DNA of 64,000 nt, from the NCBI GenBank assembly GCA_018812485.1, contig JAHJDO010000042.1, positions 9,512 through 73,511 on the forward strand. The letters run 5' to 3'. The notes under the pieces were generated by a model that did not search any database, was not told where the DNA came from, and was given only the letters and a program-made list of their open reading frames with translations. The DNA comes from a bacterium. Lineage in GTDB: Bacteria; JAHJDO01. Made by a program: the position numbers and the translations under genes. Positions 3,685 through 62,746 of the stretch are shown here, in pieces. Position 1 is the first letter of the stretch, and each line of letters opens with the position of its first letter.

Positions 3685-3720
3685 TCGCAGCGCTGTTAAA
3701 AACATATTATGGGAGAAAGT

Positions 3721-4707
3721 ATGAGTAAAGAAACAGATAGGAAATTCTGGAAGAATAAAAGAGTATTTGTTACAGGTGCAAACGGGTTTTTAGGCTCGTG
3801 GCTCACAAAAGCATTGGTTACATCCGGCGCAAGAGTAGTGGTTTTGATTAGAGATTGGATCCCTGGCTCAGTCCTGACAAATATGAAGAATGTTTATAAC
3901 AGTTTGGAAGCTGTTGTAAAAGGCGATCTTATAGATTACCAGCTTATAACTCGTATCTTTAATGAGCATAATATAGACTCATGCTTCCACATTGGAGCGC
4001 AGACAATAGTAGGAATTGCAAATAGGTCTCCTATTTCTACATTTGAATCCAATATAAGGGGCACATGGAATATTCTTGAGGCAGCAAGGAACATAGGGCT
4101 AGAGCGAATAGTTATAGCATCCAGTGATAAGGCTTATGGAGAGCAGCAGGATTTACCATACAAAGAGTCCTATTCGCTAAATGCACTCCATCCATATGAC
4201 GCATCAAAGGCATGTACTGACATACTCGCAAGAACTTATGCCTGCACATATGATATGCCGATTGTTGTAACAAGATGTGCTAATATTTACGGAGGCGGAG
4301 ATCTGAATTTCTCAAGAATTATCCCGGATACGATTAGATCTATTCTCCAGAATAAAAATCCCATTATCAGGAGTGATGGAACTCCGCTGAGAGATTATAT
4401 CTATATTGACGATGCAGTTAATGCGTATCTTATTGCTGCAGAAAAGGCTGATAAAAAGGGCATAAAAGGTGAAGCATTCAACTTTGGATCAAATAATCCG
4501 ATAAAAGTATTGGATTTAGTAAAGAAAATTATTGCAGTTTCCGGAAGCAAGTCTTTGAATCCTATTATAAAAGGCAAAGGTAAAAGCAAGGGAGAAATAA
4601 ACAACCAATACCTATCAAGCACCAAAGCAGAAAGGCTTCTAGGATGGAAACCAGTTTACAGTCTGGAAAAGGGAATTAGGGAAACTATTGAGTGGTACAA
4701 AAATTGA
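3721..4707 (+). CDS. NAD-dependent NDP-sugar 4,6-dehydratase of the extended SDR family, CDP-glucose 4,6-dehydratase-like
   Basis: FWKNKRVFVTGANGFLGSWL resembles the RfbG N-terminus, and the catalytic YDASKA (YxxxK) is present. The ORF track starts at 3709, but the ATG at 3721 is preceded by a GGGAGAAAG Shine-Dalgarno sequence, so I place the start there. Confidence 0.6.
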   Translation: MSKETDRKFWKNKRVFVTGANGFLGSWLTKALVTSGARVVVLIRDWIPGSVLTNMKNVYNSLEAVVKGDLIDYQLITRIFNEHNIDSCFHIGAQTIVGIANRSPISTFESNIRGTWNILEAARNIGLERIVIASSDKAYGEQQDLPYKESYSLNALHPYDASKACTDILARTYACTYDMPIVVTRCANIYGGGDLNFSRIIPDTIRSILQNKNPIIRSDGTPLRDYIYIDDAVNAYLIAAEKADKKGIKGEAFNFGSNNPIKVLDLVKKIIAVSGSKSLNPIIKGKGKSKGEINNQYLSSTKAERLLGWKPVYSLEKGIRETIEWYKN

Positions 4708-23740: not shown

Positions 23741-23750
23741 TACGAGGAAA

Positions 23751-32989: not shown

Positions 32990-32993
32990 AACT

Positions 32994-34466: not shown

Positions 34467-34479
34467 GAAAAGAGTAAAA

Positions 34480-40832: not shown

Positions 40833-40840
40833 TTGGCTGG

Positions 40841-41521
40841 ATGAAAAAACTAATTAAAATAAGACGATATAAAAATGAAAAGCATTACGAAGTAAATATA
40901 GATGGATTAAAGCGATTATGTCCATTATATAAAGTTGCTCCTGAGACCTGGATTGTTGGAAATGAGCATATCTCTTTCGGCACAGATATAGAGTTTACTC
41001 AAAAAATTGGGAGAAAGCTGGCAGAAAAAATATCTAAGTTTAAAGCAGATTGTATTTTAACAGCAGAAGCTAAATCTCTGGGCGCAGCTTATGAAGTTGC
41101 TAGAAATTTGGGTCACAAAAATTTTGCCATCGCCAGGAAAAGCATCAAGCCGTATGACAAGAATTACATTTCCACGGAAATAAAATCAATAACATCCGCA
41201 AAAAAAGAGCTTCTGTACTTAGATGATTTCAACATTGCCCGCATTAGAGGTAAAAAGATAGTGCTATTTGATGACGTTATCTCCACATGCAGTACCATGC
41301 TCGGACTTATAGAACTGGCAAAAAAGGCAGGGGCAGAAGTTTGCGCTATGGCAGCAATCTGGCTGGAAGGCTCTTTGGTCTTTGAACAGTTCATAGAGGA
41401 ATTTAAAGCGGGGCGGTTAATACATATAGATATTCTTCCTATTTTTACCATTGGTAAAACCTATGACAAATTACGCAATAAAAATATTTCTATTGAAAGG
41501 CTTTTAGAGCGTCGGAGATAA
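40841..41521 (+). CDS. Type I phosphoribosyltransferase-domain protein, possibly an adenine/purine PRTase
   Basis: The PRPP-binding motif is KIVLFDDVISTCSTMLGLIELAKKAGAEV (hydrophobic-DD-hydrophobic...T). The gene sits immediately after the PNP/MTAP-like gene. Confidence 0.45.
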   Translation: MKKLIKIRRYKNEKHYEVNIDGLKRLCPLYKVAPETWIVGNEHISFGTDIEFTQKIGRKLAEKISKFKADCILTAEAKSLGAAYEVARNLGHKNFAIARKSIKPYDKNYISTEIKSITSAKKELLYLDDFNIARIRGKKIVLFDDVISTCSTMLGLIELAKKAGAEVCAMAAIWLEGSLVFEQFIEEFKAGRLIHIDILPIFTIGKTYDKLRNKNISIERLLERRR

Positions 41522-49784: not shown

Positions 49785-50711
49785 ATGGATAAAGATACAA
49801 AAATTTATATTGCAGGTCATACCGGCTTGGTAGGATCAGCAGTTGTAACGGCATTTAAGAAAGAAAGATATAGAAATATAGTAACAAAGACTCATCAAGA
49901 ACTTGATTTGTTACAGCAATCAGATGTTGAGAATTTTTTCAAAGCAGAAAGACCAGAATGCGTTATTTTAGCTGCAGCGAAGGTTGGGGGGATTAAGGCT
50001 AACATAGACTATCCAGCTCAATTCATCTATGACAATCTTACAATTCAGACCAATGTAATTCATTTATCATATAAGTATGGAGTTAAAAAACTTTTGTTTT
50101 TTGGAAGTGCGTGTGCCTATCCACGTGAGTGTTCCCAACCGATGAAGGAGGAATACTTGCTTTCAGGATATTTAGAGCCAACGAATGAGCCATATGCTGT
50201 TGCAAAAATTGCAGGAATAAAGCTATGCGAGGCTTATAATAAACAGTATAGCACAAATTTTATATGTGGAATTCCTGCCACTATTTACGGTCCCAATGAT
50301 AATTTTGACCCTGATAATTCTCATGTAATTCCTGCTTTAATAGCTAAGTTTCATGAAGCCAAAGTAAAAAATTTACCTTCAGTTACAATCTGGGGCTCGG
50401 GAAAACCGCGTAGAGAATTCGTATACGTGGAAGAGGTTGCTGAGGCTTGTCTTTTTTTGATGCATAACTGCGATGAAGATGTTATCAATGTTGGATGTGG
50501 AGAGGATATATCTGTTAAAGATTTAACTCTGCTTATAAAAGATATTGTCAGATTTGAAGGAGAGATAACTTTTGACAGATCAAAACCTGATGGTATGTTG
50601 AAAAAACTTTTAGATAATAGTAAAATCAAAAGCTTAGGTTGGAAGGCGAATGTTAACCTTGAGGAAGGACTCAAGAGAACCTATGAGTGGTATAAAAAGG
50701 GCATAAAATGA
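49785..50711 (+). CDS. fcl: GDP-L-fucose synthase family enzyme: 4-keto-6-deoxy sugar 3,5-epimerase/4-reductase (Fcl, or the homologous GDP-L-colitose synthase ColC)
   Basis: KIYIAGHTGLVGSAV, AAAKVGGI, LEPTNEPYAVAKIAGIKLCEAYNKQY, SHVIPALI and GSGKPRREF align block-for-block with E. coli Fcl. Confidence 0.8.
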   Translation: MDKDTKIYIAGHTGLVGSAVVTAFKKERYRNIVTKTHQELDLLQQSDVENFFKAERPECVILAAAKVGGIKANIDYPAQFIYDNLTIQTNVIHLSYKYGVKKLLFFGSACAYPRECSQPMKEEYLLSGYLEPTNEPYAVAKIAGIKLCEAYNKQYSTNFICGIPATIYGPNDNFDPDNSHVIPALIAKFHEAKVKNLPSVTIWGSGKPRREFVYVEEVAEACLFLMHNCDEDVINVGCGEDISVKDLTLLIKDIVRFEGEITFDRSKPDGMLKKLLDNSKIKSLGWKANVNLEEGLKRTYEWYKKGIK

Positions 50712-51640
50712 AAATATTAGTTACTGGAGCTGCAGGATATATAGGCTCTGTATTAGTTCCTGAGTTGTTAAAGAACGAGCACAGCGTAATTGCCGTAGAT
50801 AACTTTATGTACAATCAAGCATCTTTACTGAATTGTTGTTGTGATGAAAAGTTTACTTTGATTCGTGGAGATGCACGTGACAAAAGTTTAATTGCTAAAT
50901 GTTTGAAAAAAGCGGATGTAATTATTCCATTAGCCTGTTTTACAGGGGCGCCTCTTTGTAAAAAGTATCCGTCTGAGGCTAGACTGGTAATTGTAGATGC
51001 TGTAAAGATGATATTGAAATTGCGCAGTAAAGAGCAAATAATTGTTTATCCTACTACTAACAGTGGTTATGGAATAGGACAAAAAGATGTTTATTGTACT
51101 GAAAAAACTCCTTTAAGCCCTGTCTCTTTATATGGAAAACTAAAAGTGGAAACAGAGAAAAACTTATTAGACTCAGGCAATACTATTACCTTAAGACTTG
51201 CAACAGCTTTCGGAATTAGCCCTCGTATGCGACTTGACCTTTTAGTTAATGATTTTACTTACCGTGCAGTAACAGATCATTTTATTGTTCTTTTTGAGGC
51301 GCATTTTAAGCGAAACTATATTCATGTTCGCGACGTGTCCAAGGCGTTTATTTACTCTTTGAGTAATTTTGAGCGAATGAAAAATGAACCCTATAATGTT
51401 GGCTTAAGTAATGCTAACTTAGATAAGTGGGAGTTATGTGAAGAGATTAAAAAACAAATTCCGGAATTTGTTTTTATTGAAGCAGAAATTGGAGAGGATC
51501 CGGATAAGAGGGATTATATCGTAAGCAATGAAAAAATTGAGAAGACAGGATTCAGGCCTGATGTATCTCTGCAAGATGGGATAACAGAATTAATAAAAGG
51601 ATACCAGATTATCCAAAAAAATCAGTTTTCCAATATTTAG
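50708..51640 (+). CDS. NAD-dependent epimerase/dehydratase of the extended SDR family
   Basis: The Rossmann motif is ILVTGAAGYIGSVLV, and YGKLK is the YxxxK motif. Confidence 0.65.
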   Translation: MKILVTGAAGYIGSVLVPELLKNEHSVIAVDNFMYNQASLLNCCCDEKFTLIRGDARDKSLIAKCLKKADVIIPLACFTGAPLCKKYPSEARLVIVDAVKMILKLRSKEQIIVYPTTNSGYGIGQKDVYCTEKTPLSPVSLYGKLKVETEKNLLDSGNTITLRLATAFGISPRMRLDLLVNDFTYRAVTDHFIVLFEAHFKRNYIHVRDVSKAFIYSLSNFERMKNEPYNVGLSNANLDKWELCEEIKKQIPEFVFIEAEIGEDPDKRDYIVSNEKIEKTGFRPDVSLQDGITELIKGYQIIQKNQFSNI

Positions 51641-51690: not shown

Positions 51691-53199
51691 ATGAAAAGTT
51701 CAACAGATGTTTTATTTATAAATCCCGGTAATCATAAAAAAACATATCAAGGTTTATCAAAAGAATTCACAGCAATTGCTCCACCTGTCTGGACATCTTT
51801 ATTAGCTAATTATATCCGCAAGGAGGGGTACAGCGCTGCAATTTATGATGTAAATGTTGAAGGCTGGGATAATGGCAAAGTGAAAGAGATAATAGCCGGA
51901 TATAATCCTAATTTAGTTGTTATGATGGTTTATGGTCATCATCCGTCTGCTTCTACGCAAACAATACCGTCTGCAGGCCAAATAGCAAGAGACATAAAAA
52001 TATATAACAGGGATATTCCGGTTGCAATGGGAGGAACGCACCCTTCTGCTTTACCTGAAAGGACGCTTGGAGAAGAAGATATTGATTTTGTGATACAGGG
52101 AGAAGGAGTATATACAATAAAAGGATTAGCAGACTGGACAAAAGGGAAGAGAGATATTAAGAAGATAAAGGGATTATGGTGCAAAAATGGGAACCTAACA
52201 TCTTTCACAACACCGCCACCTGTTGTTGAAAACTTGGATGATGAGCTGGATAATTATGCATGGGATTTGTTACCTGAAATAAATAATTACAGAGCCCATA
52301 ATTGGCACTGTTTTCAAGAATTTGAAAAAAGCAGGCAGGATGATTTTTTAGATGTCAGAACGCCTTATATCGCAATGAACACATCTTTGGGATGTCCCTA
52401 CTCATGTAACTATTGCTGCATAAATGCGATATTTGGGAAACCTCGCATAAGATACTGGTCGTTAGATAGGGTTTTTTTATGGATTGATACACTTGTCAAC
52501 AGATATAAAGTAAAGAGCATAAGATTTGATGATGAACTTCTTATATTATCTTCTAAAAGAATGGAGAGATTTTGTGATATGCTCATTGAAAGAAGTTACG
52601 ACTTGAATCTTTTTGCGTATGGGAGAGTTGATACTATTCAGGAGAAACTTCTCGGGAAATTGAAAAAGGCAGGAGTGAATTGGATATGCCTTGGAATAGA
52701 ATCTGCAAATGAAAAGGTGAGAGCAGGGGTAAACAAAAAGATAAAAAAAGATATAAAAGAAGTGGTTAGAATGATACAGAGTAATAATATAAATGTTCTC
52801 GGCAATTATATGTTTGGTTTGCCTGATGACAATCTGGAAACAATGGAAGAAACACTTCAACTGGCGATGGAATTAAATTGCGAATTTGCCAATTTCTATA
52901 GCGTAATGGCTTATCCAGGTTCAGCATTGTATGAATGGGCATCTAATAAGAACGGTTATTTACCAAAATCATGGGGAGCATTTTCTCAGCACAGTTATGA
53001 AACTCAACCTTTGCCTACCAAATATCTCCCAGCGAAAGACGTATTAAAGTTCAGAGATGAAGCATATTTAAGATACTTTGAAAATCCAAGGTATTTGAAA
53101 CATGCAAAAGATAAGTTTGGACAAAAAGTAGAATCTCATATACAAAAGATGACGCAAATAAAATTAAAAAGAAAATTATTGGAGGAGAATTTATGTTAA
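51691..53199 (+). CDS. B12-binding-domain radical SAM protein (class B-like)
   Basis: The N-terminal B12-like domain (VLFINPGNH...LVVMMVYGHH) precedes TSLGCPYSCNYCCINA. Confidence 0.75.
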   Translation: MKSSTDVLFINPGNHKKTYQGLSKEFTAIAPPVWTSLLANYIRKEGYSAAIYDVNVEGWDNGKVKEIIAGYNPNLVVMMVYGHHPSASTQTIPSAGQIARDIKIYNRDIPVAMGGTHPSALPERTLGEEDIDFVIQGEGVYTIKGLADWTKGKRDIKKIKGLWCKNGNLTSFTTPPPVVENLDDELDNYAWDLLPEINNYRAHNWHCFQEFEKSRQDDFLDVRTPYIAMNTSLGCPYSCNYCCINAIFGKPRIRYWSLDRVFLWIDTLVNRYKVKSIRFDDELLILSSKRMERFCDMLIERSYDLNLFAYGRVDTIQEKLLGKLKKAGVNWICLGIESANEKVRAGVNKKIKKDIKEVVRMIQSNNINVLGNYMFGLPDDNLETMEETLQLAMELNCEFANFYSVMAYPGSALYEWASNKNGYLPKSWGAFSQHSYETQPLPTKYLPAKDVLKFRDEAYLRYFENPRYLKHAKDKFGQKVESHIQKMTQIKLKRKLLEENLC

Positions 53200-54023
53200 A
53201 AGATTTTAGAAAATTGGAAGATAAAGCCCATTACATCTGCAATCAAGTTTTGGATATGTGTATTAAGGCGGGTACTGGACATGTTACATCTTCACTTTCG
53301 TGCGCAGAAATTCTTGTAGCGCTTTATTATGGAGGAATACTTAATTATGATGCTTCTAATCCTGAGTGGTGTGATCGGGATAGATTTGTCCTGAGCAAGG
53401 GACAAGCAAGTCCTATTTTGTATACAATATTGGCTGATGTCGGGTTTTTCCCAAAAACTAAACTGGCTAAGTTTGGCCAGGCAAATGGTGCTGTTGGAGT
53501 TCATATGCAGTGCGATGTTGCCGGAGTAGAAATTACTGCTGGTTCCCTGGGTCATGGTTTAGGGATTGGGGCAGGTATGGCACTTGCGGCAAGAATGGAT
53601 AGAAAGCATTATCTGACTTTTGTTCTTTTGGGAGATGGAGAATGCCATGAAGGCTCAATATGGGAGTCTGCCATGTTTGCAGGTCATCACCAACTAAATA
53701 ATTTAATTACCATAGTTGACAGAAATTGGCTTTGCGCTACGGACTTTACAGAAAATTGCGTTCGTCTCGATCCTATGGATGAAAAATGGAAAGCATTTGG
53801 TTTTGAGGTAGTTAGTATTAATGGGCATAGTTTTCAGGAAATCTTTAGTGCTCTTGATGGATTTCGTTCAAGGAGACTCCATAAGCCATTAATGATTATT
53901 GCAAACACGGTGAAAGGTAAGGGAATAAGTTTTATGGAAGATCAACCGTTATGGCATTCTGTAGCTCCCAAAGGCAAAGACGCTAAAAGAGCAAAAATTG
54001 AGTTAAGTAAAAGAGGAGAGTAA
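53193..54023 (+). CDS. Transketolase N-terminal (TPP-binding) subunit of a split transketolase
   Basis: GHVTSSLSCAEILVALYY is the histidine TPP-binding block, and LLGDGECHEGSIWES is the GDG-x-x-EG diphosphate-binding motif. Confidence 0.8.
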   Translation: MLKDFRKLEDKAHYICNQVLDMCIKAGTGHVTSSLSCAEILVALYYGGILNYDASNPEWCDRDRFVLSKGQASPILYTILADVGFFPKTKLAKFGQANGAVGVHMQCDVAGVEITAGSLGHGLGIGAGMALAARMDRKHYLTFVLLGDGECHEGSIWESAMFAGHHQLNNLITIVDRNWLCATDFTENCVRLDPMDEKWKAFGFEVVSINGHSFQEIFSALDGFRSRRLHKPLMIIANTVKGKGISFMEDQPLWHSVAPKGKDAKRAKIELSKRGE

Positions 54024-54027
54024 AAAA

Positions 54028-54963
54028 ATGGCAAGTATTACGATGAGGGATGCATTTTTTAATAAATTATATGAAATTGCTAAGAATGATAGAAATGTTA
54101 TTGTTGTTAGTGCTGATATGGGAGCTCCAAGTCTTGATAAGTTTAGAAGGGACTTACCTTCTCAATTTATCAATGTTGGTATAGCTGAACAAAATATGGT
54201 GACTGTTGCGACAGGTTTAGCTCTAACTGGCAAAAATGTTTATACTTACGCCATCATGCCGTTTGCTTCATTGCGATGTTATGAATTTATAAAAGTTGAT
54301 TTTTCTCTTATGAATATTGGTGTGACCACTATAGGTGTTGGTTCAGGCTTTGGTTATCCTGATTCAGGACCTACCCATCATTCTACAGAGGATATCTCTG
54401 CTTTGCGTGCGCTTCCAAATATGACGATACTAAATTCGTCTAGTAACCGGATGGTAGAAAAGTTTACGGAGATATCATATAACATGTCAACTCCATGCTA
54501 CATCAGGTTAGATAGAGGATTAGTGCCTGAAGTTTATGATAAAAGCGAAAATTTCTCCAATGGATTAGCAATGCTTAAAACAGGCAAAGACCTGTATATA
54601 ATTGCAACCGGGAATATGGTTGATCAAGCATTTAAAGTTGTTAAAAAGCTATCAGAACATTCTATAGATGCAGGGATTATCGATTTATATAGAATAAAGC
54701 CTATTAATACAAAATTACTCATAAAATACATAAAAAACGCGCATCGAATAGTAACATTGGAAGAACATTTTCTTGCTGGGGGAATGGGGTCTGCTGTTGT
54801 GGAAAATTTAACTGACAATGGGATAAGTATTCCAATTAAACGTATTGGGGTTCCGGATAAATATTATTATGCTTATGGCAATAGAGATGACATAAATCTT
54901 GAGTGTGGATTGGATACAGAGACTGTTGCTAAAATAATTTTAAAATGGGTAAAAAAGATCTAA
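54028..54963 (+). CDS. Transketolase C-terminal (pyrimidine-binding) subunit of a split transketolase
   Basis: INVGIAEQNMVTVATGLAL and GSGFGYPDSGPTHH are present. At 311 aa it is typical of the split TK-C subunit. Confidence 0.8.
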   Translation: MASITMRDAFFNKLYEIAKNDRNVIVVSADMGAPSLDKFRRDLPSQFINVGIAEQNMVTVATGLALTGKNVYTYAIMPFASLRCYEFIKVDFSLMNIGVTTIGVGSGFGYPDSGPTHHSTEDISALRALPNMTILNSSSNRMVEKFTEISYNMSTPCYIRLDRGLVPEVYDKSENFSNGLAMLKTGKDLYIIATGNMVDQAFKVVKKLSEHSIDAGIIDLYRIKPINTKLLIKYIKNAHRIVTLEEHFLAGGMGSAVVENLTDNGISIPIKRIGVPDKYYYAYGNRDDINLECGLDTETVAKIILKWVKKI

Positions 54964-54987: not shown

Positions 54988-55980
54988 ATGATTATTAGCA
55001 GAACTCCATTTCGAATCTCTTTTTTTGGAGGTGGAACTGATTATCCTGTCTGGTATAGAGAGAATAGCGGAGCAGTTCTTTCAACAACTATAGATAAATA
55101 TTGTTATATAACTTGTCGGCGACTCCCTCCTTTCTTTGAATACAAGCACAGAATTGTCTATTCAAAGTACGAACATGTTAACGAAATAGATGAAATTGTG
55201 CACCCTGCCGTTAGAGAGGCATTTAGATTTATGGATATTAAGGATGGATTAGAGATACATCATGACGGGGACCTCCCCGCGCGATCCGGTCTAGGATCGA
55301 GTTCGTCTTTTACTGTAGGGTTATTGCATGCTCTATATGCTTTAAAAGGGGAAATGGTTACAAAAAAACGCTTGTCTCTTGAAGCTATTCATATTGAGCA
55401 GGAGATGATAAAAGAAAATGTAGGTTCACAAGACCAGGTGAGTGTAGCGTTTGGAGGCCTAAATAAGATTGAATTTTCCGGTAATCATGATATTGAAGTC
55501 AGACCCATAACTATAAGAGAGCCGAGGTTGCAGGAATTGCAGGATTGTTTAATGCTATTTTTTACTGGTTTTACAAGGATAGCTTCAGATGTAGCAGGAG
55601 ATAAAATATCTCAAATCCCAAATAAAAAGAAGGAACTTAATATATTGCATGATATGGTTAATAACGCTATAGATATCTTAAATGGAAACTATGACCTTGT
55701 TGAATTTGGCAAATTGCTTGATGAAAGCTGGAAAATTAAGAAAAGTTTGTCTAGTAAAGTATCAAACAGGAACATAGACAATATTTATGAGAGCGCAATT
55801 AAGGCTGGTGCAACTGGTGGGAAGATTTTAGGCGCTGGTAGTGGGGGCTTTATTTTGTTTTTTGTGAGGCCTGAGAAAAGAGATAGAGTAAAGAAAGCAT
55901 TAAGTCCTTTATTGCACGTGCCTTTTCGTTTTGATAAAACAGGAAGCCAGATTATTTATTATAGTGAAAGCGGAGTGTAA
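54988..55980 (+). CDS. GHMP-family sugar kinase, HddA-like (D-glycero-D-manno-heptose 7-phosphate kinase / fucokinase type)
   Basis: SRTPFRISFFGGGTDYP is the N-terminal signature of HddA-type kinases, and GLGSSSSFTVGLLHAL is the GHMP ATP-binding motif. Confidence 0.7.
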   Translation: MIISRTPFRISFFGGGTDYPVWYRENSGAVLSTTIDKYCYITCRRLPPFFEYKHRIVYSKYEHVNEIDEIVHPAVREAFRFMDIKDGLEIHHDGDLPARSGLGSSSSFTVGLLHALYALKGEMVTKKRLSLEAIHIEQEMIKENVGSQDQVSVAFGGLNKIEFSGNHDIEVRPITIREPRLQELQDCLMLFFTGFTRIASDVAGDKISQIPNKKKELNILHDMVNNAIDILNGNYDLVEFGKLLDESWKIKKSLSSKVSNRNIDNIYESAIKAGATGGKILGAGSGGFILFFVRPEKRDRVKKALSPLLHVPFRFDKTGSQIIYYSESGV

Positions 55981-55983
55981 TAA

Positions 55984-57183
55984 GTGAAAATTCCTTTTGG
56001 AACAATTTCTATAACGAAAAAATCCAGAGAATTAATAAAAGAAATTCTCAAATCAAATAGATTATCCAGTGGGAAGCACGTAAGAGAATTCGAAAAAAAA
56101 TTCGCAAAACTTATAGGCACAAAAGAAGCGATTGCGGTTAGCAGTGGAACTGATGCTCTTGTGTTAGCATTGGCAGTGTTATATGAATTTGGCGCAAGAC
56201 GGGGAGACGAGATCATAGTTCCAGCCCTATCGTTTGTAGCAACAGGCAATGCTGTGTTGCATGCTGGGTTTACTCCTGTTTTTGTGGATATTAATAAAAA
56301 AACTTTAAATATTGACTGTTCTAAGATTGAAGGCGTTATTACAAAAAAGACCAAAGCGATTTTGCCTGTTCATTTAATGGGGAAGCCTGCAGATATGGAT
56401 ACCATAAATAGTATTGCAAAAAAACACAATCTCTATGTAATTGAAGATGCAGCAGAGGCGCACGGAGCAGTCTATAAGAACAAAAATATAGGCACTATAG
56501 GGGATATGGCTGCATATAGTCTTTATGTTGCGCACATAATCAGTACTGTAGAAGGAGGCATTATTACTACAGATAATCAGAACTTTGCTGAAACAATAAG
56601 GTCATTAAGAAGTCATGGGAGAGCATGTAAGTGTGAAAGCTGTGTGCTTAATACTGCATCTGCTTATTGTCCAAAGAGGTTTAAGTATAAAGATAATGCA
56701 GATATTAGATTTATATTTGAACGAGTCGGTTTTTCATCTAAGATGAATGAGATGGAGGCAGCAATAGGGATCGGGAACCTGGATATATATAATGATATTC
56801 TTAGCAGAAGAAGAGAAAATCTTTATTATCTTATAAAAAAATTCAAAAATTTTGAACCCTATATGGCAACAATAGAAAAGGAATCTTATGAGGAGATAGG
56901 GCCACACGCTTTTCCCATGATTATTCAAGAGGGTGTAAAATTTACCCGTAATCAGCTTGTAACTTTTCTAGAAAAAAATGAGATTGATACAAGAAGCTTG
57001 TTCTCTTCTATGCCCACGCAATGTCTTGGCTTTAAATTCTTGGGTTATAAAGAAGGAGATTTTCCAAATGCTGAGTACATAGGAGAACATGGGATTCATA
57101 TAGGAGTCCATCAGGATTTAGATAAAGAGAAATGCGATTACATTATTAATACAATAGGAAAATTTTTATCAAAAAATGGCTAG
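55984..57183 (+). CDS. DegT/DnrJ/EryC1 fold PMP/PLP-dependent sugar 3-dehydratase (ColD/E1-like), with His in place of the usual internal-aldimine Lys
   Basis: GDEIIVPALSFVATGNAV and especially SLYVAHIISTVEGGIITTD align with ColD SFYSHHIATMEGGCIVTDD. Aminotransferases of this fold carry Lys where this protein has His. The start is a GTG at 55984. Confidence 0.55.
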   Translation: MKIPFGTISITKKSRELIKEILKSNRLSSGKHVREFEKKFAKLIGTKEAIAVSSGTDALVLALAVLYEFGARRGDEIIVPALSFVATGNAVLHAGFTPVFVDINKKTLNIDCSKIEGVITKKTKAILPVHLMGKPADMDTINSIAKKHNLYVIEDAAEAHGAVYKNKNIGTIGDMAAYSLYVAHIISTVEGGIITTDNQNFAETIRSLRSHGRACKCESCVLNTASAYCPKRFKYKDNADIRFIFERVGFSSKMNEMEAAIGIGNLDIYNDILSRRRENLYYLIKKFKNFEPYMATIEKESYEEIGPHAFPMIIQEGVKFTRNQLVTFLEKNEIDTRSLFSSMPTQCLGFKFLGYKEGDFPNAEYIGEHGIHIGVHQDLDKEKCDYIINTIGKFLSKNG

Positions 57184-57748
57184 GACGTCTAAAAAAGTAC
57201 AACCATGGCAACTATTGTCTACTAAAGAGTTGTTTGCAGTTTCTCCCTGGATTAAAGTTTATGAAGATACGATAAAACTTCCCAGTGGGAGAATCGTTGA
57301 GGATTATTATCGGATTGCACTTCCTGAATATGCAATGATTTATGCTCAGAGAAAGGATGGAAAGGTTCTCTTTGAACGACAATATAAACATGGTCTTGGG
57401 AAAATAACACTTGTTTTGCCAGCAGGAGCTCTGGAAAAAGGGGAAAGGGCTATTGAAACTGCAAAAAGAGAACTGCTTGAAGAAACAGGTTACCAGGCAG
57501 GTAGATGGAAATATGTTGGGTCATTTTTAGTGAATGGAAATAAAGGATGCGGAAGAGCTCACTTTTTTATTGCAAAAGAACTAGAAAAGATTTCTGAGCC
57601 GGTAATTGATGATATGGAGGAACCTGAAATTGTGTTTATTTCTGAGCATTCTATCATGAAGGCAATATTTAACGGTGAAATTTCTACTCTTGCTACTGCG
57701 TCTTTAGTAGCAATTGCAACAAACCCCGCTATATCCCAAATCTATTAG
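57176..57748 (+). CDS. NUDIX hydrolase (likely an NDP-sugar pyrophosphatase)
   Basis: The Nudix box is GALEKGERAIETAKRELLEETGY (GX5EX7REUXEEXGU). Confidence 0.7.
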   Translation: MARTSKKVQPWQLLSTKELFAVSPWIKVYEDTIKLPSGRIVEDYYRIALPEYAMIYAQRKDGKVLFERQYKHGLGKITLVLPAGALEKGERAIETAKRELLEETGYQAGRWKYVGSFLVNGNKGCGRAHFFIAKELEKISEPVIDDMEEPEIVFISEHSIMKAIFNGEISTLATASLVAIATNPAISQIY

Positions 57749-57766: not shown

Positions 57767-58468
57767 ATGAAAGCTATTATTTTGGCAGGCGGATTTGGTT
57801 TGCGTTTACGTGGAACCGTTAAGAATTTACCAAAACCAATGGCTCCGATAACCGGAAGACCTTTCCTTGAATACTTAGTATTACAGCTTAAAAAATGGGG
57901 AATTAACGAAATAATACTTGGGGTAGGATATCTAAAAGGAAAAATTAAATCTTATTTCGGTAATGGCAAACAGTGGGATGTGCATATTATATATTCTGAG
58001 GAAAATAAGCCCTTAGGAACAGGGGGAGCTATCAAGAAGGCGGTTGAATTAATAGATGATGATGAGTTTTTGGTAATGAATGGAGATTCTTTTCTTGATT
58101 TGGATTTCAATCGGATTATTAGTTTTCATCGGAAACAAAAAGCAGTAGCTACTATAGGTATAACCTGTGTTGATGATTTAAGCCGTTATGGTAAGGTAGA
58201 AATTAATAGTAAAAACGAGGTAATTAAGTTTGTTGAAAAAGATTCTGATGTGGGCAGATTTATTAATGGAGGAGTGTACGTCTTCACTCGTAAGATTATT
58301 AATTGCATTCCTATGGGTAAAGTTTCTTTGGAACATGATGTTTTACCTGCCCTTATCAATCAAGGATTATATGGTATGATAACAAAAGGGTTCTTCGTAG
58401 ATATAGGCGTGCCTCAGGATTTCTTTGACCTATGCAAAAATCCCGAAAAGTTATTGAATGCTGTATGA
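57767..58468 (+). CDS. Sugar-1-phosphate nucleotidyltransferase, HddC-like (heptose/mannose-1-phosphate guanylyltransferase type)
   Basis: MKAIILAGGFGLRLRGTVKNLPKPMAPITGRPFLEYLVLQLKKWGINEIILGVGY closely parallels the HddC/GmhD N-terminus. It is a short (233 aa) single-domain nucleotidyltransferase. Confidence 0.7.
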   Translation: MKAIILAGGFGLRLRGTVKNLPKPMAPITGRPFLEYLVLQLKKWGINEIILGVGYLKGKIKSYFGNGKQWDVHIIYSEENKPLGTGGAIKKAVELIDDDEFLVMNGDSFLDLDFNRIISFHRKQKAVATIGITCVDDLSRYGKVEINSKNEVIKFVEKDSDVGRFINGGVYVFTRKIINCIPMGKVSLEHDVLPALINQGLYGMITKGFFVDIGVPQDFFDLCKNPEKLLNAV

Positions 58469-58492: not shown

Positions 58493-60616
58493 ATGTGCGA
58501 TTTCTTTATGAGAGATAAACAAGGATTATTGGCTTTAATAATAGGTGTTTGTCTTTTATTTTGCCTTACTACAAGTTCTTTTTCTGAGTCGACATTAGTT
58601 GAAGGCAATAGTGACTTGATTGTTTTTACTTATACTAAGTATTTAGATGGTAAGCCAGTTTTAATTTTTAGTGAACAAGTATCAGAAAAGTTATCCAATC
58701 TACTCAATAAAGTCGATAATATAGTATTTTGTGATAGTACCCGGCAGGATTTGGCGCTGAAGTTAATTAAGGGAAAGTCAGAGGCAGAAGTTTGGCAGAG
58801 AATGAAGAGCTCTGAACCTGAGATAGCGTACATATTTACAAAAGATGGGGAATTCTATGTGCCAGAAACCATTAAAAATTATGAGTTAAAGGTAAAACTA
58901 AAGCCAAAGGCAGTAGAATCCCGCGTTTACATAAGACCAAAGATACTATCTGACACTTCCCTTCTTGATTCTGGAGCACAACATATGCCTCACGAAGATT
59001 TTCCAGATATTATACTTCAAGGAACTCCCGTATTATTCACCAAAGATATAGAGGCGGATTTAGAAGAATTTCCTGCTTTTAAGCTGGAAGCAGAATTTGA
59101 GAACAAGGGATCAAGTAAGTTACTTATATACCTCGGAATTGATTATACAGGAGATAATATTATTGATAGTTGTCTGAAATTCGAAGATGTGAGTGTGTGT
59201 GAATATAATATTTTTGAATTGGCAAAAACTAAATGGAAAAAGTTCAATAAATTTGTATTAAAAGAAATCTGCTTTCAGATTTTGCCTGAGGATAAAAAAA
59301 AGAATGAGAAAGAAAAAGCAGAAGCAGGGATTTTTAGGATAAAAGATATAAGTTTATTTAACGAGAATTCATTGGCCGTAGTGGAAAAAAAGTATCAGAG
59401 AGCTCAATTGAAATTTCAAGAAGTGAATGCTAAATCCAGCATTATAGAAAAGGATGATACAATTAATATCTCTGTTTGCGTTGAGGATGAACCTGTAGAG
59501 AAGGATCACAAAAAAAAGAGAACCGGGAAGATAAAGATTCAAGTTCCGCTAGAGATAAGAAATTTCCATTATTTTTCATTTAATTATGAATTAGAGGATC
59601 CGGAATTTCAGGATATTAAACTTGCAATTTCAATAAATAAGGAGAATAAAAGAAGGACAATTGGTATTCCTGCAAGCCGGTATACAAAACTTAGAGAAAC
59701 CCAAAAGATAGAAGTCAATCTTAAAAGGATAATCCCTAAAGGATATGAAGTTGAAGATTTAATTATTATACTTGAGCAGAAAGAACTTGATGAAAATGTT
59801 TCTCGAAAAAATAAGTGGCGTCGATTTCAGTTGGCTAATCTCCAGTTATACGAGAAATTTCCTTATTCTTTAAAAACAGAGCAGGGAAAAGAAAATTTTT
59901 TATCTTTGTTATCAATAGTAAATCCACCTCTTGTAAAAATAGATAATCAAATTTTCCACTTAAATGATTTTGTAAGTTGGAAAAATTTCAAAGATTTAGA
60001 AAACAATATTTTGCTAAAGAAATTCGCATTTTCAGTGGGAGAGCATAAGTATGAAAAATTTGAAAATGAAACTTTAGATGTTGAATGGGTGATAATAGAA
60101 CCAGAGGGCGGAGGACAGAGGACAGAGGGCAGAAATGGACCAGAGATTACGTTTAAAAAGATAAATCCTGTAAAATATTTGGTAAAGGTTAAAGGAGCAA
60201 AATCTGCTTTTTGGATGGTGTTTAGTGAGAGTTTTCATAAGCAGTGGAAACTTTATAAAATCAAAAATCAAAAATCAAAAATCAAAAATTTATTTGATGA
60301 AATTGTGGCGGATTATCCGGAATTAGGAGTAAAAGAAGCAAAGAAACTTGTAAAGTTTATTCCTCAGGATATAAACTTTTTATTTGAAAAACCATTAGAA
60401 GCGTCACATCAACTGGTTAATACTTATGCCAATGGTTGGTATATAGAGCCAAGAAAACTGGGATTAGGAGAGGATTTTGTTTTGACAATATATTTCTGGC
60501 CTCAAAGTTTATTTTATCTTGGACTTGGAATATCTGGGCTAACGTTACTTTGTTGTTTAATTTATTTGACATATAGATGTTTTCCCTTCTCTGTCAAGAG
60601 AAGGGGTAGGAGGTGA
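58493..60616 (+). CDS. Secreted/cell-surface protein with an N-terminal signal-anchor and a C-terminal transmembrane helix; it contains an in-frame heptanucleotide simple repeat
   Basis: The N-terminus LLALIIGVCLLFCLTTSSFS is hydrophobic. The body is K/E-rich and soluble. The C-terminus FYLGLGISGLTLLCCLIYLTY is a transmembrane helix followed by a basic tail RRGRR. I recognise no catalytic motif. Confidence 0.4.
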   Translation: MCDFFMRDKQGLLALIIGVCLLFCLTTSSFSESTLVEGNSDLIVFTYTKYLDGKPVLIFSEQVSEKLSNLLNKVDNIVFCDSTRQDLALKLIKGKSEAEVWQRMKSSEPEIAYIFTKDGEFYVPETIKNYELKVKLKPKAVESRVYIRPKILSDTSLLDSGAQHMPHEDFPDIILQGTPVLFTKDIEADLEEFPAFKLEAEFENKGSSKLLIYLGIDYTGDNIIDSCLKFEDVSVCEYNIFELAKTKWKKFNKFVLKEICFQILPEDKKKNEKEKAEAGIFRIKDISLFNENSLAVVEKKYQRAQLKFQEVNAKSSIIEKDDTINISVCVEDEPVEKDHKKKRTGKIKIQVPLEIRNFHYFSFNYELEDPEFQDIKLAISINKENKRRTIGIPASRYTKLRETQKIEVNLKRIIPKGYEVEDLIIILEQKELDENVSRKNKWRRFQLANLQLYEKFPYSLKTEQGKENFLSLLSIVNPPLVKIDNQIFHLNDFVSWKNFKDLENNILLKKFAFSVGEHKYEKFENETLDVEWVIIEPEGGGQRTEGRNGPEITFKKINPVKYLVKVKGAKSAFWMVFSESFHKQWKLYKIKNQKSKIKNLFDEIVADYPELGVKEAKKLVKFIPQDINFLFEKPLEASHQLVNTYANGWYIEPRKLGLGEDFVLTIYFWPQSLFYLGLGISGLTLLCCLIYLTYRCFPFSVKRRGRR
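60261..60288 (+). repeat. Perfect tandem heptanucleotide simple repeat, (TCAAAAA) x 4, inside the coding sequence
   Basis: It is read directly at 60261-60288, with flanking A-runs extending it to about 60257-60290. It encodes ...KIKNQKSKIKN... Confidence 0.85.
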
Positions 60617-60626
60617 GTTAAAAACA

Positions 60627-61577
60627 GTGAAACAAAAAATTAGATATATAATTTTCATTGTTTTATTAGGTTTTGTTATAGGTTTTTTATATAACCACAT
60701 CGTAATTCAAGACTCTTATAGGAAAGATCTGTTCTGCTATAAGAATAGTATTAAATTACATAATTCAGAATACATTAACCTAACCTACATAATTCGTTAT
60801 AAAGAAACCCTGCTTCTGAAAATAGTTTCTTCATCTGCAAAAAAAACAATTGTTTTTAATAATAAAGTTTTAACCCCGTATAAAACACAAAAACACTTTA
60901 GAAAATTAAATAATCTTTTCGTGAAAGAATATTATACGAAACCTATTGATTATGTTCTTATCCCAGCAGATATAGTAAATGTCGGAAAGAATTTACTCAA
61001 AATATCATTCCTGCAAGATGTTCGTGATTGCGTAACAATAAAAATGGGGAATTACCATCGCAATACTAATGATCAGATATTTATCTTATTTAAAGATTCT
61101 CATGTTTTGCCCTTAAAGAAAAGCTCTATTACATATCTATATTCAGCCTTGATTGTCTTATCTCTATCTTTGTTATTAGCGTGGATATCGAAAATTTTAT
61201 TTATTAGAAGACTAGGAACGAAAAAGGATGATATTTATTTAAAGATTCTCATTTTCTTTCTACCTGCGAATATTTTATTTTTTCCAGCATATATAATCCC
61301 AAGAATAGTTGAGCTGAGATTATTTACTACAGCAAGGTTTTTTTATATGCTACAAGCAGTTTCGTTAGGTATTATGTATTCTATATTTTTATATAATTGT
61401 AATAAGGGAATAATAATTGAAAATATTGAGAAATCGTATGCAGACTTAAGAAAGGGGTTTTTGCCAGTACATGCTTTTATGATTGCTATAACCATTATAA
61501 TTATACGCTGTCTAAGATATTTGCGCTCACGAATGATATCACTTTGGCAGTCTATTTCGCGTGTCTTGGATACTTAG
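60627..61577 (+). CDS. Membrane protein, copy 1 of a tandem paralog pair (function unknown)
   Basis: An N-terminal transmembrane helix, a ~150-aa extracytoplasmic region, then 4-5 transmembrane helices. The GTG start at 60627 has an upstream GGAGGTGA. It is at least 70% identical to the next gene. Confidence 0.5.
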   Translation: MKQKIRYIIFIVLLGFVIGFLYNHIVIQDSYRKDLFCYKNSIKLHNSEYINLTYIIRYKETLLLKIVSSSAKKTIVFNNKVLTPYKTQKHFRKLNNLFVKEYYTKPIDYVLIPADIVNVGKNLLKISFLQDVRDCVTIKMGNYHRNTNDQIFILFKDSHVLPLKKSSITYLYSALIVLSLSLLLAWISKILFIRRLGTKKDDIYLKILIFFLPANILFFPAYIIPRIVELRLFTTARFFYMLQAVSLGIMYSIFLYNCNKGIIIENIEKSYADLRKGFLPVHAFMIAITIIIIRCLRYLRSRMISLWQSISRVLDT

Positions 61578-62660
61578 AATTTAGGTTTGTGAAGAGCAAG
61601 AAAAAAGCGGGAAAAAGAATAAGGGATATATAAACAATGAAACGGAAAGTTAGATATATAATTTTTTCTGGTTTATTAAGTCTAATTATAAGTTTTTTCT
61701 ATAACTGCAGCGTAATTCCAGATTCTTATGAGAAAGAGCTGTTCTTCTATGAGGATAGTATTAAGTTACGTGATTCAAAATACATTAATATGACCAACCT
61801 AATTCCTTATAAAGAAACCTTGCTTCTGAAAATAGCCTCTTTATATAAAAGGAAGACAATTATTTTTAATAATAAAATTTTAATTCCGTATAAAACAAAA
61901 AAATATTCCAGGAAATTAAAGAATCTTTTCGTGAAAGAATATTATATAAAACCTGTTGATTATGTTCTCATTACAGCAGATATAGTAAATGTCGGAAAAA
62001 ATTCACTCAAAGTATCTTTCCCTCGAGATGTTCGTGATTGCGTAACAATAAAAATAGGGAATTACCATCGCAATACTAATGATCAGATATTTATCTTATT
62101 TAAAGATTCTCATGTTTTGTCCTTAAAGAAAAGCTCTATTACATATCTATATTCAGCCTTGATTGTCTTATCTCTATCTTTGTTATTAGCGTGGATATCG
62201 AAAATTTTATTTATTAGAAGACTAGGAACGAAAAAGGATGATATTTATTCAAAGATTCTCATTTCCTTTCTACCTGCGAATATTTTATTCTTCTCGACAT
62301 ATATGATCTCAATGACAGCTGATTTAAAACTATTTGTAACATCGGGTTATTTTTATATGCTGCAGATGATTTCATTGGGTATTACGTATTCTATATTTTT
62401 ATATAATTGTAATAAGGAAATAATAATTGAAAATATTGAGAAATCGTATGCAGATTTAAGAAAGGGTTTTTTGCCAGTACATGCTTTTATGATTGCTGTA
62501 ATCGTTATAATTACACGCTGCTTAAGATATCTGCATTCACGGACGATACTATTCTGGCGGTGGTTAAAGTCAAGGTCATTCAGTGATAAATGTGTAATTC
62601 TATTTATGTTCCTTCTCATTGTCTGTACTTTACTATTAATTGCACATTTAGAAATAGCGG
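60640..62660 (+). repeat. Tandem direct duplication, roughly 1010 bp per unit, each unit carrying one paralog gene and containing near-identical DNA blocks
   Basis: 61021-61260 and 62031-62270 are nearly base-for-base identical (ttcgtgattgcgtaacaataaaaat[g/a]gggaattaccatcgcaatactaatgatcagatatttatc...). 61375-61490 and 62385-62500 are likewise. The offset is about 1010 bp. Confidence 0.7.
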
Positions 62661-62746
62661 CAGAGCAGCTGGCAAGTATTGCGTATCTTGCATTGTGTTT
62701 TGGTGTCATTATTAAGTTGGTAAAATCAGTAAGAGAAAAAGATTGA
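61637..62746 (+). CDS. Membrane protein, copy 2 of a tandem paralog pair with an extended C-terminus
   Basis: MKRKVRYIIFSGLL... is collinear with copy 1 and has extra C-terminal transmembrane helices. Confidence 0.5.
   Translation: MKRKVRYIIFSGLLSLIISFFYNCSVIPDSYEKELFFYEDSIKLRDSKYINMTNLIPYKETLLLKIASLYKRKTIIFNNKILIPYKTKKYSRKLKNLFVKEYYIKPVDYVLITADIVNVGKNSLKVSFPRDVRDCVTIKIGNYHRNTNDQIFILFKDSHVLSLKKSSITYLYSALIVLSLSLLLAWISKILFIRRLGTKKDDIYSKILISFLPANILFFSTYMISMTADLKLFVTSGYFYMLQMISLGITYSIFLYNCNKEIIIENIEKSYADLRKGFLPVHAFMIAVIVIITRCLRYLHSRTILFWRWLKSRSFSDKCVILFMFLLIVCTLLLIAHLEIAAEQLASIAYLALCFGVIIKLVKSVREKD

Follow-up and report, generated by a model that had tools for sequence, protein, structure and literature searches.

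The 64,000-nucleotide stretch analysed here (the window; positions 9,512 to 73,511 of contig JAHJDO010000042.1, assembly GCA_018812485.1, from a bacterium of the GTDB lineage JAHJDO01) contains a single huge glycan locus, which runs on one strand from position 3709 to 62746, has a G+C content of about 35%, and comprises many glycosyltransferase and methyltransferase genes. The current study concerns one gene of this locus, at 55984..57183 on the plus strand, whose product is a candidate sugar 3-dehydratase of the DegT fold and the His type, i.e., dependent on pyridoxamine 5'-phosphate (PMP), as indicated by the family PF01041 and by full-length matches to the 3-dehydratases E1 and ColD. The open reading frame (ORF) starts with GTG, is preceded by GGAG 8 nt upstream, and encodes a protein of 399 amino acids whose N-terminus, MKIPFGT, is that of the family consensus. 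Its stop codon overlaps the ATG of the following NUDIX hydrolase gene by 8 nt, which suggests that the two genes are translationally coupled. An antisense ORF at 55959-56354 (131 amino acids) was dismissed as a shadow ORF within a highly conserved coding region.

The Pfam domain DegT_DnrJ_EryC1 (PF01041) covers residues 10-391 of the protein (E = 2.4e-102). In phmmer comparisons with the PDB, only E1 (3bcx, 2e-54) and ColD (2gms, 6e-53) aligned over the full length; the strong alignments to aminotransferases were confined to the N-terminal half, which is most similar to guanosine diphosphate (GDP)-perosamine synthase. The highest-scoring curated NCBIfam model was RfbH/E1 (NF011936) with 277.2 bits, below its cutoff of 423, and the aminotransferase models all failed, i.e., PseC with 257.6 bits (cutoff, 423.5), ArnB with 192 (631), WecE with 170 (435), and DesI with 162 (650). 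Foldseek searches against the PDB returned perosamine synthase, ColD, E1, and many aminotransferases with TM-scores of 0.80-0.86, a range within which the subfamilies are not separable; the highest query-normalised values of the model were those for E1 (0.85-0.86). The AlphaFold2 model, based on a 47-sequence alignment, has a sound overall fold (predicted TM-score of 0.80), and Asp155, Ser179, and Tyr181 of the cofactor site are invariant in the family.

The initial annotation had proposed that a His replaces the Lys by which sugar aminotransferases bind pyridoxal 5'-phosphate (PLP), and this proposal is borne out. The block SLYVAHIISTVEGGIITTD is present, and His184 (codon CAC at 56533..56535, plus strand) aligns with the Schiff-base Lys position. 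In the phmmer alignments it pairs with Lys186 of GDP-perosamine synthase ('ffgnKiittgegg'), which is Ala in the K186A entry 3dr4, with His220 of E1 ('fypaHhitmgegg'), which is Lys in the H220K entry 3bb8, and with His188 of ColD ('fysHhiatmegg'), which is Asn in 3b8x (H188N) and Lys in 2r0t (H188K). The register of His184 is certain because crystallised point mutants of three reference proteins mark this column, and the ColD string quoted in the annotation is identical to the PDB sequence. His184 is kept in all 120 homologues with 73-100% identity, and a conserved aldimine Lys, looked for in the same set, was found in none of them. A HMMER search of 1.84 billion representatives at 50% identity detected 6873 relatives at E <= 1e-30, the best 150 of which were aligned to the family hidden Markov model; among the 144 with a residue at column 184, 120 have His and 24 have Lys. 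The preceding residue is Ala183, as in E1, whereas ColD has Ser187 there, so that the Ser-His dyad of ColD does not occur in the protein. The DegT-fold enzymes with His in place of Lys that have been characterised so far are E1, ColD, and SpnQ only, all of which are C-3 dehydratases acting on nucleoside diphosphate (NDP)-4-keto-6-deoxy sugars (PMC8987622).

Directly after the conserved Gly212-Arg213 lies a Cys-rich loop, C215-x-C217-xx-C220-x8-C229 (56626..56670, plus strand; GRAC215-K-C217-ES-C220-x8-C229), a candidate site for an Fe-S cluster or a metal, whose four Cys residues are each invariant in all 120 homologues. At the corresponding place E1 has GRD-C251-Y-C253-APG-C257-DNT-C261, which shares the start GR-x-C-x-C (Cys215 and Cys217 correspond to Cys251 and Cys253 of E1), and the loop of ColD is seven residues shorter and free of Cys. 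A four-Cys [2Fe-2S] site is carried by E1 and SpnQ and is missing from ColD (PMC8987622). Among the best 150 of the 6873 relatives, a CxCxxC loop with at least four Cys residues occurs in 28 of the 120 His-type sequences but in none of the 24 Lys-type ones, and 18 of the 28 have no Cys at the position of Cys193 in E1. Since the loop accompanies His-type sequences only and in these 18 cases occurs without that additional Cys, it appears to be a motif that is complete in its own four Cys residues and linked to active sites of the dehydratase type. Such a distribution suggests that the loop takes part in the dehydratase reaction; in the simplest case, it would be an Fe-S site whose four Cys ligands all lie within one loop. 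An extra Cys restricted to the narrow family, Cys347 (codon at 57022..57024, plus strand), is likewise invariant in all 120 homologues and is replaced by Gln, His, or Pro in the more distant Cys-loop relatives and in E1 and ColD; Cys384 is present in 114 of the 120.

His-for-Lys DegT proteins in metagenomes (representatives P0122-P0270) are far commoner and more diverse than the three characterised lineages would lead one to expect, and the loops of the other His-type clades are unrelated, e.g., 'HGRDSIYLSIDDDD', the short 'HGRK/P', and the ColD-like 'HGWIRD'. In one large clade, with the acidic 'HGRDSIYLSIDDDD' loop, the members are often fused to a family 2 or family 1 glycosyltransferase (GT2 or GT1) or to a short-chain dehydrogenase/reductase (SDR); all of these proteins appear to be uncharacterised. 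The Cys-loop relative P0155 is fused to an RmlD-like 4-ketoreductase, other His-type relatives to an SDR, a GT2, or a GT1, and these fusions argue that the His-type clade belongs to nucleotide-sugar pathways.

The family is exceptionally well conserved, with over 120 clusters in the range of 73-91% identity, and its members all come from uncultured organisms; about 36 GTDB species carry it at an identity of at least 55%. Its carriers are Planctomycetota/Phycisphaerae, including Candidatus (Ca.) Brocadia, Nitrospirota/Thermodesulfovibrionia, many Omnitrophota, Firestonebacteria, and Desulfobacterota, as well as Pelotomaculum, Chloroflexota, Spirochaetia, and Victivallales, and more remote members are present in Coatesbacteria, Elusimicrobiota, and one archaeon of the Thermoplasmata. 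Public databases name the members exclusively as aminotransferases ('DegT/DnrJ/EryC1/StrS family aminotransferase' or 'dTDP-4-amino-4,6-dideoxygalactose transaminase').

The gene is part of a conserved cassette, and the plus-strand genes around it include, first, an Fcl/ColC-like NDP-4-keto-6-deoxy-sugar 3,5-epimerase/4-reductase (49785..50711), recognisable by the motifs GSACAYP, YAVAK, and NSHVIPAL. The reductase of this type that the initial annotation had named is a real and co-conserved gene, with orthologues of 51-62% identity beside the DegT-His gene in two loci of other phyla (L006 and L010), although its GDPFucSynFcl score of 449.5 bits lies under the cutoff of 500. It is followed by an extended SDR (50708..51640; Pfam Epimerase, motifs TTNSGYG and YGKLK), which is reductase- or epimerase-like rather than dehydratase-like and has orthologues at 52-78% identity in about 15 related loci, and by a B12-binding radical S-adenosylmethionine (SAM) enzyme (51691..53199; Pfam B12-binding and Radical_SAM), probably a C-methyltransferase, with orthologues at 48-49% identity in L006 and L010 and at up to 67% in L014. 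A split enzyme of the transketolase type, dependent on thiamine diphosphate (ThDP), is encoded by the next two genes, an N-terminal subunit at 53193-54023 (Transketolase_N) and a C-terminal one at 54028-54963 (Transket_pyr and Transketolase_C). Immediately upstream of the DegT-His gene lies a GHMP sugar kinase (54988..55980; GHMP_kinases_N/C) that is distantly similar to HddA, the anomeric kinase of heptose-7-phosphate (NCBIfam HddA, 165.5 bits with a cutoff of 600; PDB heptokinases 4n3o, 4usk, and 3k85 at about 1e-37). Downstream are an accessory NUDIX hydrolase of the NDP-sugar pyrophosphatase type (57176..57748; NDPSase_N and NUDIX) with an intact Nudix box, GALEKGE-x7-RELLEETGY, and an HddC/ManC-like sugar-1-phosphate nucleotidyltransferase (57767..58468; NTP_transferase). 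The latter scored 180.7 bits with the NCBIfam model HddC (cutoff, 300) versus 116 with glucose-1-phosphate cytidylyltransferase, and its top PDB match is HddC of Yersinia (5xhw, 1.8e-41), so that by sequence it is most likely GDP-type. The cassette proper consists of the kinase, the DegT-His gene, the nucleotidyltransferase, and, in some loci, the NUDIX hydrolase; its usual companions are a two-subunit ThDP enzyme, a B12-radical SAM enzyme, and Fcl-like and SDR enzymes, and it recurs in metagenome-assembled genomes of Planctomycetota, Nitrospirota, Omnitrophota, Desulfobacterota, and other groups.

The 4,6-dehydratases on which the initial annotation had relied are most likely two genes about 50 kb upstream, only one of which is of the dehydratase type. 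This NDP-hexose 4,6-dehydratase-like SDR (3709..4707, plus strand; CDP_4_6_dhtase [TIGR02622], 202 bits with a cutoff of 278) has the S-D-K/YxxxK signature (SSDK...YDASK) and is the only dehydratase-type SDR of the window, but its same-strand neighbour at 4692-5723 is epimerase-like (S-T-N-K). The two genes overlap and may form a separate deoxy-sugar branch that is not linked to the cassette; the dehydratase-like gene, 52 kb upstream of the DegT-His gene on the same strand, is not co-conserved with the cassette. Motif and profile comparison found no Gmd-type (T-S-E) dehydratase among the SDRs of the window, which contains neither a complete colitose set Gmd/ManB/ManC nor the set RfbF/RfbG/E3.

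Gene neighbourhoods were compared across 42 related loci, with the window and the Brocadia locus L003 counted outside this number. The DegT-His gene and the GHMP kinase gene, which are 73-77% and 60-73% identical across phyla, respectively, form the tightest and most conserved pair of the cassette, compared with 37-60% for the nucleotidyltransferase. Among the 42 loci, the kinase is present in 29 (53-70% identity to the window protein) and nearly always adjacent. The nucleotidyltransferase was found in 23 loci (29-57% identity), and orthologues of the B12-radical SAM enzyme, the Fcl-like enzyme, and the SDR recur in many. A two-subunit ThDP enzyme occurs in 26 loci, either of the transketolase type (11 loci; 34-62% identity for the N-terminal subunit) or of the pyruvate dehydrogenase E1 (PDH-E1) type (15 loci; a different family, for which identities are not comparable), and never both together. 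The presence of the ThDP pair at the same place of the cassette in two unrelated forms (L003, L006, L008-L010, and L011-L045) has the appearance of non-orthologous displacement, and the C2 donors of the two forms could differ, one being a glycolaldehyde and the other an acetyl unit. The NUDIX partner is confined to one of the 42 loci (L016) plus the window and L003 (62-64% identity, with 64% in L003). Loci with the PDH-E1 pair carry an SDR with S-S-E/YxxxK, a 4,6-dehydratase-like signature, and a minimal cassette in Phycisphaerales consists of an RmlC-like gene, DegT-His, the kinase, and the nucleotidyltransferase only. Fcl/ColC-like, RmlC-like, and 4,6-dehydratase-type SDR genes thus recur beside the DegT-His gene in other phyla, and since such partners act on NDP-4-keto-6-deoxy sugars, they support a role of the DegT-His protein as a 3-dehydratase.

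The His-type active site and the full-length alignments to E1 and ColD support, at the level of sequence, the earlier proposal of C-3 deoxygenation rather than transamination. We consider it probable that the protein is an NDP-4-keto-6-deoxy-sugar 3-dehydratase of the E1/SpnQ type, dependent on an Fe-S cluster and PMP, which would lead to a 3,6-dideoxy sugar, possibly one with a branch or a C-methyl group. As in its homologues E1, ColD, and SpnQ (PMC8987622), PMP would form a ketimine with C-4 of the NDP-4-keto-6-deoxy sugar, His184 in its place at the aminotransferase Lys position would take the C-4' proton of PMP, and loss of the 3-OH would leave a delta-3,4-ene-PMP adduct. Judging from the invariant Cys residues of the loop, an Fe-S cluster on Cys215, Cys217, Cys220, and Cys229 would deliver two electrons to this adduct, whereupon the NDP-4-keto-3,6-dideoxy sugar would be released and PMP regenerated. 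Because no E3 or ferredoxin gene is linked, the electrons might come from a general cellular ferredoxin or flavodoxin, which is plausible in these anaerobes and resembles SpnQ, an enzyme that operates with general ferredoxin/flavodoxin reductases (PMC8987622).

The substrate would probably be a GDP-sugar, a heptose or a hexose, supplied by the neighbouring enzymes of the cassette, i.e., the kinase resembling HddA and the nucleotidyltransferase resembling HddC. GDP is favoured by the similarity of this transferase to HddC/ManC, by the Fcl-like partner, and by the resemblance of the N-terminal half to perosamine synthase, and a heptose is possible because of the HddA-like kinase and of a family 9 glycosyltransferase (GT9), heptosyltransferase-like, at 23712 in the locus. 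We infer the downstream steps from gene co-occurrence throughout: the 4-keto product would be handled by the co-conserved Fcl/ColC-like epimerase-reductase and the SDRs, and, most speculatively, the two-subunit ThDP enzyme might add a C2 branch and the B12-radical SAM enzyme a C-methyl group. In all acyl-branched cell wall sugars known, ThDP enzymes start from cytidine diphosphate (CDP)-4-keto-3,6-dideoxyglucose, the product of E1 (PMC9306805), and in actinomycetes the two-subunit, PDH-E1-like AviB1/AviB2 install C-4 acetyl branches (PMC4753412). The recurring ThDP enzyme may be best explained by its likeness to the branching of yersiniose, erwiniose, and caryophyllose, and the finding that some loci have a PDH-E1-type pair exactly where others have one of the transketolase type also indicates a role in C2 transfer. 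A transketolase that boosts the supply of sedoheptulose-7-phosphate for heptose synthesis was disfavoured, as 15 loci have the PDH-E1-type pair, which is unable to make this compound. The 3,6-dideoxy sugar pathway of the initial annotation stands in part only. The conserved context of HddA-like kinase, NUDIX hydrolase, HddC-like transferase, split transketolase, and B12-radical SAM enzyme had gone unmentioned, and it speaks for a product less simple than colitose or a classical CDP-3,6-dideoxyhexose.

Several observations weigh against an Fe-S-dependent 3-dehydratase. The members of the family are known from sequence alone, and in the AlphaFold2 model the predicted local distance difference test score falls below 50 at residues 181-189 (the His segment) and 212-251 (the Cys loop), where Cys-Cys and Cys-cofactor distances are unreadable. 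The [2Fe-2S] motif of E1 was reportedly described by Agnihotri et al. in 2004 as C-X57-C-X1-C-X7-C (Cys193, 251, 253, and 261), a spacing that agrees with the residue numbering of the 3bcx sequence. Cys192 and Cys193 of E1 correspond to the invariant Ala156 and Ala157 here, and this motif does not occur in the protein; of the E1-like Cys motif that the initial annotation had brought up, the Cys-rich loop, which ColD lacks, is present, but the equivalent of Cys193 is not. The loop could instead coordinate Zn or have a structural role only. A Pfam scan of about 52 window ORFs, which covered all those of at least 120 amino acids, detected neither an E3 nor a ferredoxin or flavodoxin, and no protein with a Fer2, FAD_binding_6, or NAD_binding_1 domain; a crude regular-expression screen of about 42 related loci revealed no ORF with a plausible ferredoxin or ferredoxin-NADP reductase motif. 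The window's own cassette has no 4,6-dehydratase, the nearest one being the gene 52 kb upstream. An invariant His, shared with perosamine synthase, occupies position 308, at which E1 (Phe345) and ColD have Phe; judged from the alignment, this aminotransferase-like trait could support a ColD-style, glutamate-dependent regeneration of PMP. Finally, we know of no precedent in the E1 or ColD pathways for the tight pairing of kinase and DegT genes.

His308 and the lack of an encoded reductase partner, both in the window and in the related loci covered by the regular-expression screen, would fit an enzyme that works like ColD, to which we give a small but appreciable chance. The His step would be the same, but the ene-amine would be hydrolysed with loss of ammonia and PMP regenerated from PLP and L-glutamate without any electron transfer, the Cys loop being structural or zinc-binding; such an enzyme and the Fcl/ColC-like one would together yield a colitose-like GDP-3,6-dideoxy-L-sugar or a 3,6-dideoxyheptose. 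The match to ColD nearly equals that to E1 (6e-53 versus 2e-54), the N-terminal half is closest to GDP-perosamine synthase, itself a GDP-sugar enzyme, an Fcl/ColC-like partner is co-conserved, the nucleotidyltransferase is HddC/ManC-like, i.e., of the GDP type, and ColD-type enzymes of Campylobacter jejuni act on a GDP-6-deoxy-4-keto-heptose made via HddA/HddC (PMC10440746). Such an enzyme could hardly explain the four invariant loop Cys residues, however, which are missing from ColD, with its loop shorter by 7 residues, and from the C. jejuni enzymes; moreover, the Cys loop co-occurs with His-type active sites only, and the His is preceded by Ala, a feature of E1, rather than by the Ser of ColD.

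The tight pairing of the DegT-His and GHMP kinase genes, adjacent in almost every locus and more conserved than the nucleotidyltransferase, would be expected if the order of events were different, i.e., if a free or phosphorylated ketose from the ThDP enzyme were deoxygenated beside its carbonyl with PMP/PLP before the kinase and nucleotide activation. A transketolase-like or DXS/PDH-E1-like ThDP enzyme is indeed usually present, and the window cassette lacks a 4,6-dehydratase. Nevertheless, we regard this course as improbable, because the chemistry is without precedent, the characterised His-type DegT enzymes all use NDP-4-keto-6-deoxy sugars (PMC8987622), and the Fcl-like, RmlC-like, and 4,6-dehydratase-type partners need NDP-4-keto sugars; the fusion of a Cys-loop relative to an RmlD-type reductase points in the same direction. 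It is very improbable that the protein is an ordinary sugar aminotransferase, as the database names imply, or an inactive pseudoenzyme. SpnQ can transaminate when given no reductase (PMC8987622), but the aldimine Lys is found in 0 of the 120 homologues and the scores of the equivalog models lie far below their cutoffs, while 73-91% identity across phyla and intact cofactor-binding residues speak against a pseudoenzyme.

We regard the protein, as an E1/SpnQ-type candidate, as a member of a distinct, widespread, and uncharacterised 3-dehydratase subfamily, in which the class of chemistry is known but the Cys signature and the cassette are new. It would represent a fourth lineage beside E1, ColD, and SpnQ, with a four-Cys signature of its own, no dedicated reductase, and a gene neighbourhood not previously described. 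The uniform misannotation as an aminotransferase would mislead the prediction of glycans (amino versus deoxy sugars) for many uncultured anaerobes, including anammox bacteria. Should the Fe-S assignment be true, the family would show a second way in which nature connects a cluster to PMP, and it would open an approach to the unusual dideoxy sugars, some perhaps branched or C-methylated, of bacteria that matter in the environment. Only tentatively, and as a rather unlikely extension, do we propose a new, widespread class of Fe-S 3-dehydratases in which the cluster would be bound wholly by one CxCxxC-x(5-9)-C loop, without the Cys193 of E1 and without an E3. Such an enzyme would catalyse the committed step of a new pathway encoded by the cassette, together with the HddA-like kinase, the nucleotidyltransferase, the two-subunit ThDP enzyme, the B12-radical SAM enzyme, and the Fcl-like reductase, to a C-branched and/or C-methylated 3,6-dideoxy hexose or heptose of the cell surface in the anaerobes among the Planctomycetota (with Ca. 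Brocadia), Nitrospirota, Omnitrophota, and Desulfobacterota.

With respect to anammox bacteria, the S-layer O-glycan of Kuenenia contains an unidentified residue of 174.09 Da, for which a dimethyl-deoxyhexose has been guessed (PMC5088730). A sugar C8H16O5, with a residue C8H14O4 of 174.0892 Da, fits a yersiniose-type C2-branched 3,6-dideoxyhexose and a C-methyl-3,6-dideoxyheptose alike. A search with the Brocadia protein for a match in Kuenenia stuttgartiensis and a look-up of cluster names gave no Kuenenia-labelled orthologue, and the tie between the cassette and the 174-Da sugar is only a lead. In anammox-type Planctomycetia (the Ca. Brocadia locus L003 [GCA_030409075.1, 13371-21200] and the loci L008 and L009), the cassette lies directly upstream of a legionaminic acid-like cluster encoding a LegB-like SDR, a DegT aminotransferase, a formyltransferase, NeuB, a methyltransferase, a 2-epimerase, a PIG-L deacetylase, a SPASM radical SAM protein, and a CMP-transferase. 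A similar set has been linked to the surface-layer glycans of Kuenenia with their formylated free-amine nonulosonic acids (bioRxiv 10.64898/2026.04.20.719630).

The wider glycan locus of the window is rich in radical SAM genes. Six encode B12-binding enzymes (at 7963, 31472, 32994, 34423, 44478, and 51691, three of them in tandem at 31472-35898) and six others SPASM or other radical SAM proteins (at 12790, 16623, 24946, 35933, 38954, and 42465), an exceptional number that, together with the many SAM methyltransferases, suggests heavily C- and O-methylated sugars. Between radical SAM genes, at 40017-41518, lie a purine-nucleoside phosphorylase (NF006054, 287 bits with a cutoff of 218) and an adenine-phosphoribosyltransferase-like gene, a pair that may salvage 5'-deoxyadenosine and adenine from the approximately twelve radical SAM enzymes. 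Two fusions were observed, namely a 680-amino-acid protein (24946-26988) with an N-terminal GT2 and a radical SAM domain (residues ~347-484) and a 779-amino-acid protein (29136-31475) that joins a metalloenzyme domain similar to type I phosphodiesterases and sulfatases to a SAM methyltransferase domain and may add or modify a phospho-substituent of the glycan. The GT9 heptosyltransferase-like gene spans 23712-24902 and suggests heptose in the glycan. At the end of the locus, a 707-amino-acid protein without a family match (58493-60616) precedes two tandem paralogous membrane proteins (60627-61577 and 61637-62746), which have no Pfam match, are 76% identical over 308 amino acids, and indicate a recent duplication. 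Upstream of the locus, the minus strand encodes a DUF1559 protein, i.e., a planctomycete-type pseudopilin (2213-2917), which hints at an origin of the contig in the Planctomycetota or the PVC group.

Among the known systems, ColD/WbdK (GDP-4-keto-6-deoxy-D-mannose 3-dehydratase, 2gms) shares with our protein the DegT fold, the His at the Lys site, about 31% identity, and an Fcl-like partner, ColC, but differs in its short Cys-free loop, the Ser before the His, the lack of an Fe-S cluster, and the regeneration of PMP with glutamate. The GDP-heptose C3-dehydratases of C. jejuni HS:5 and HS:11, which act downstream of HddA/HddC in their pathway, are 62-67% identical to ColD (PMC10440746) and, as close ColD homologues, do not belong to the family described here, whose window member is only about 31% identical to ColD. 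E1 (CDP-6-deoxy-L-threo-D-glycero-4-hexulose 3-dehydrase; RfbH/DdhC/AscC of Yersinia and Salmonella, 3bcx) has the same fold, the Ala-His pair, a Cys loop starting from G-R-x-C-x-C, and about 29% identity. The E1 loop reads CxCxxxCxxxC instead of CxCxxC-x8-C, however, Cys347 is an addition of the present protein, and Phe345 takes the place of His308; furthermore, E1 comprises 437 amino acids with an N-terminal extension of about 35 residues, which the 399-amino-acid protein lacks. E1 is also accompanied by RfbF/RfbG and by the reductase E3 (AscD/RfbI) with a plant-type [2Fe-2S] cluster, flavin adenine dinucleotide, and NADH, neither of which has a counterpart in the cluster, and its nucleotide is CDP as opposed to, probably, GDP. 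The biosynthesis of yersiniose and erwiniose (E1/E3 followed by YerE/ErwE; compare AviB1/AviB2) likewise combines a 3-dehydratase with a ThDP enzyme that forms C-C bonds and with reductases, but YerE is a single-subunit flavoprotein resembling acetolactate synthase that acts on a CDP-sugar, whereas the present cassette has a split transketolase (in other loci, a PDH-E1 pair) and also encodes an anomeric kinase and a B12-radical SAM enzyme. SpnQ, the dTDP-4-keto-2,6-dideoxyglucose 3-dehydratase of the forosamine pathway of spinosyn, is of the His type, has an Fe-S cluster, and lacks a dedicated E3 (PMC8987622). It belongs to a dTDP pathway of actinomycete secondary metabolism and not to a cell surface glycan cassette with a kinase and a nucleotidyltransferase, but, judged from its published description, it may be the enzyme closest in mechanism to an Fe-S 3-dehydratase that has no reductase of its own.

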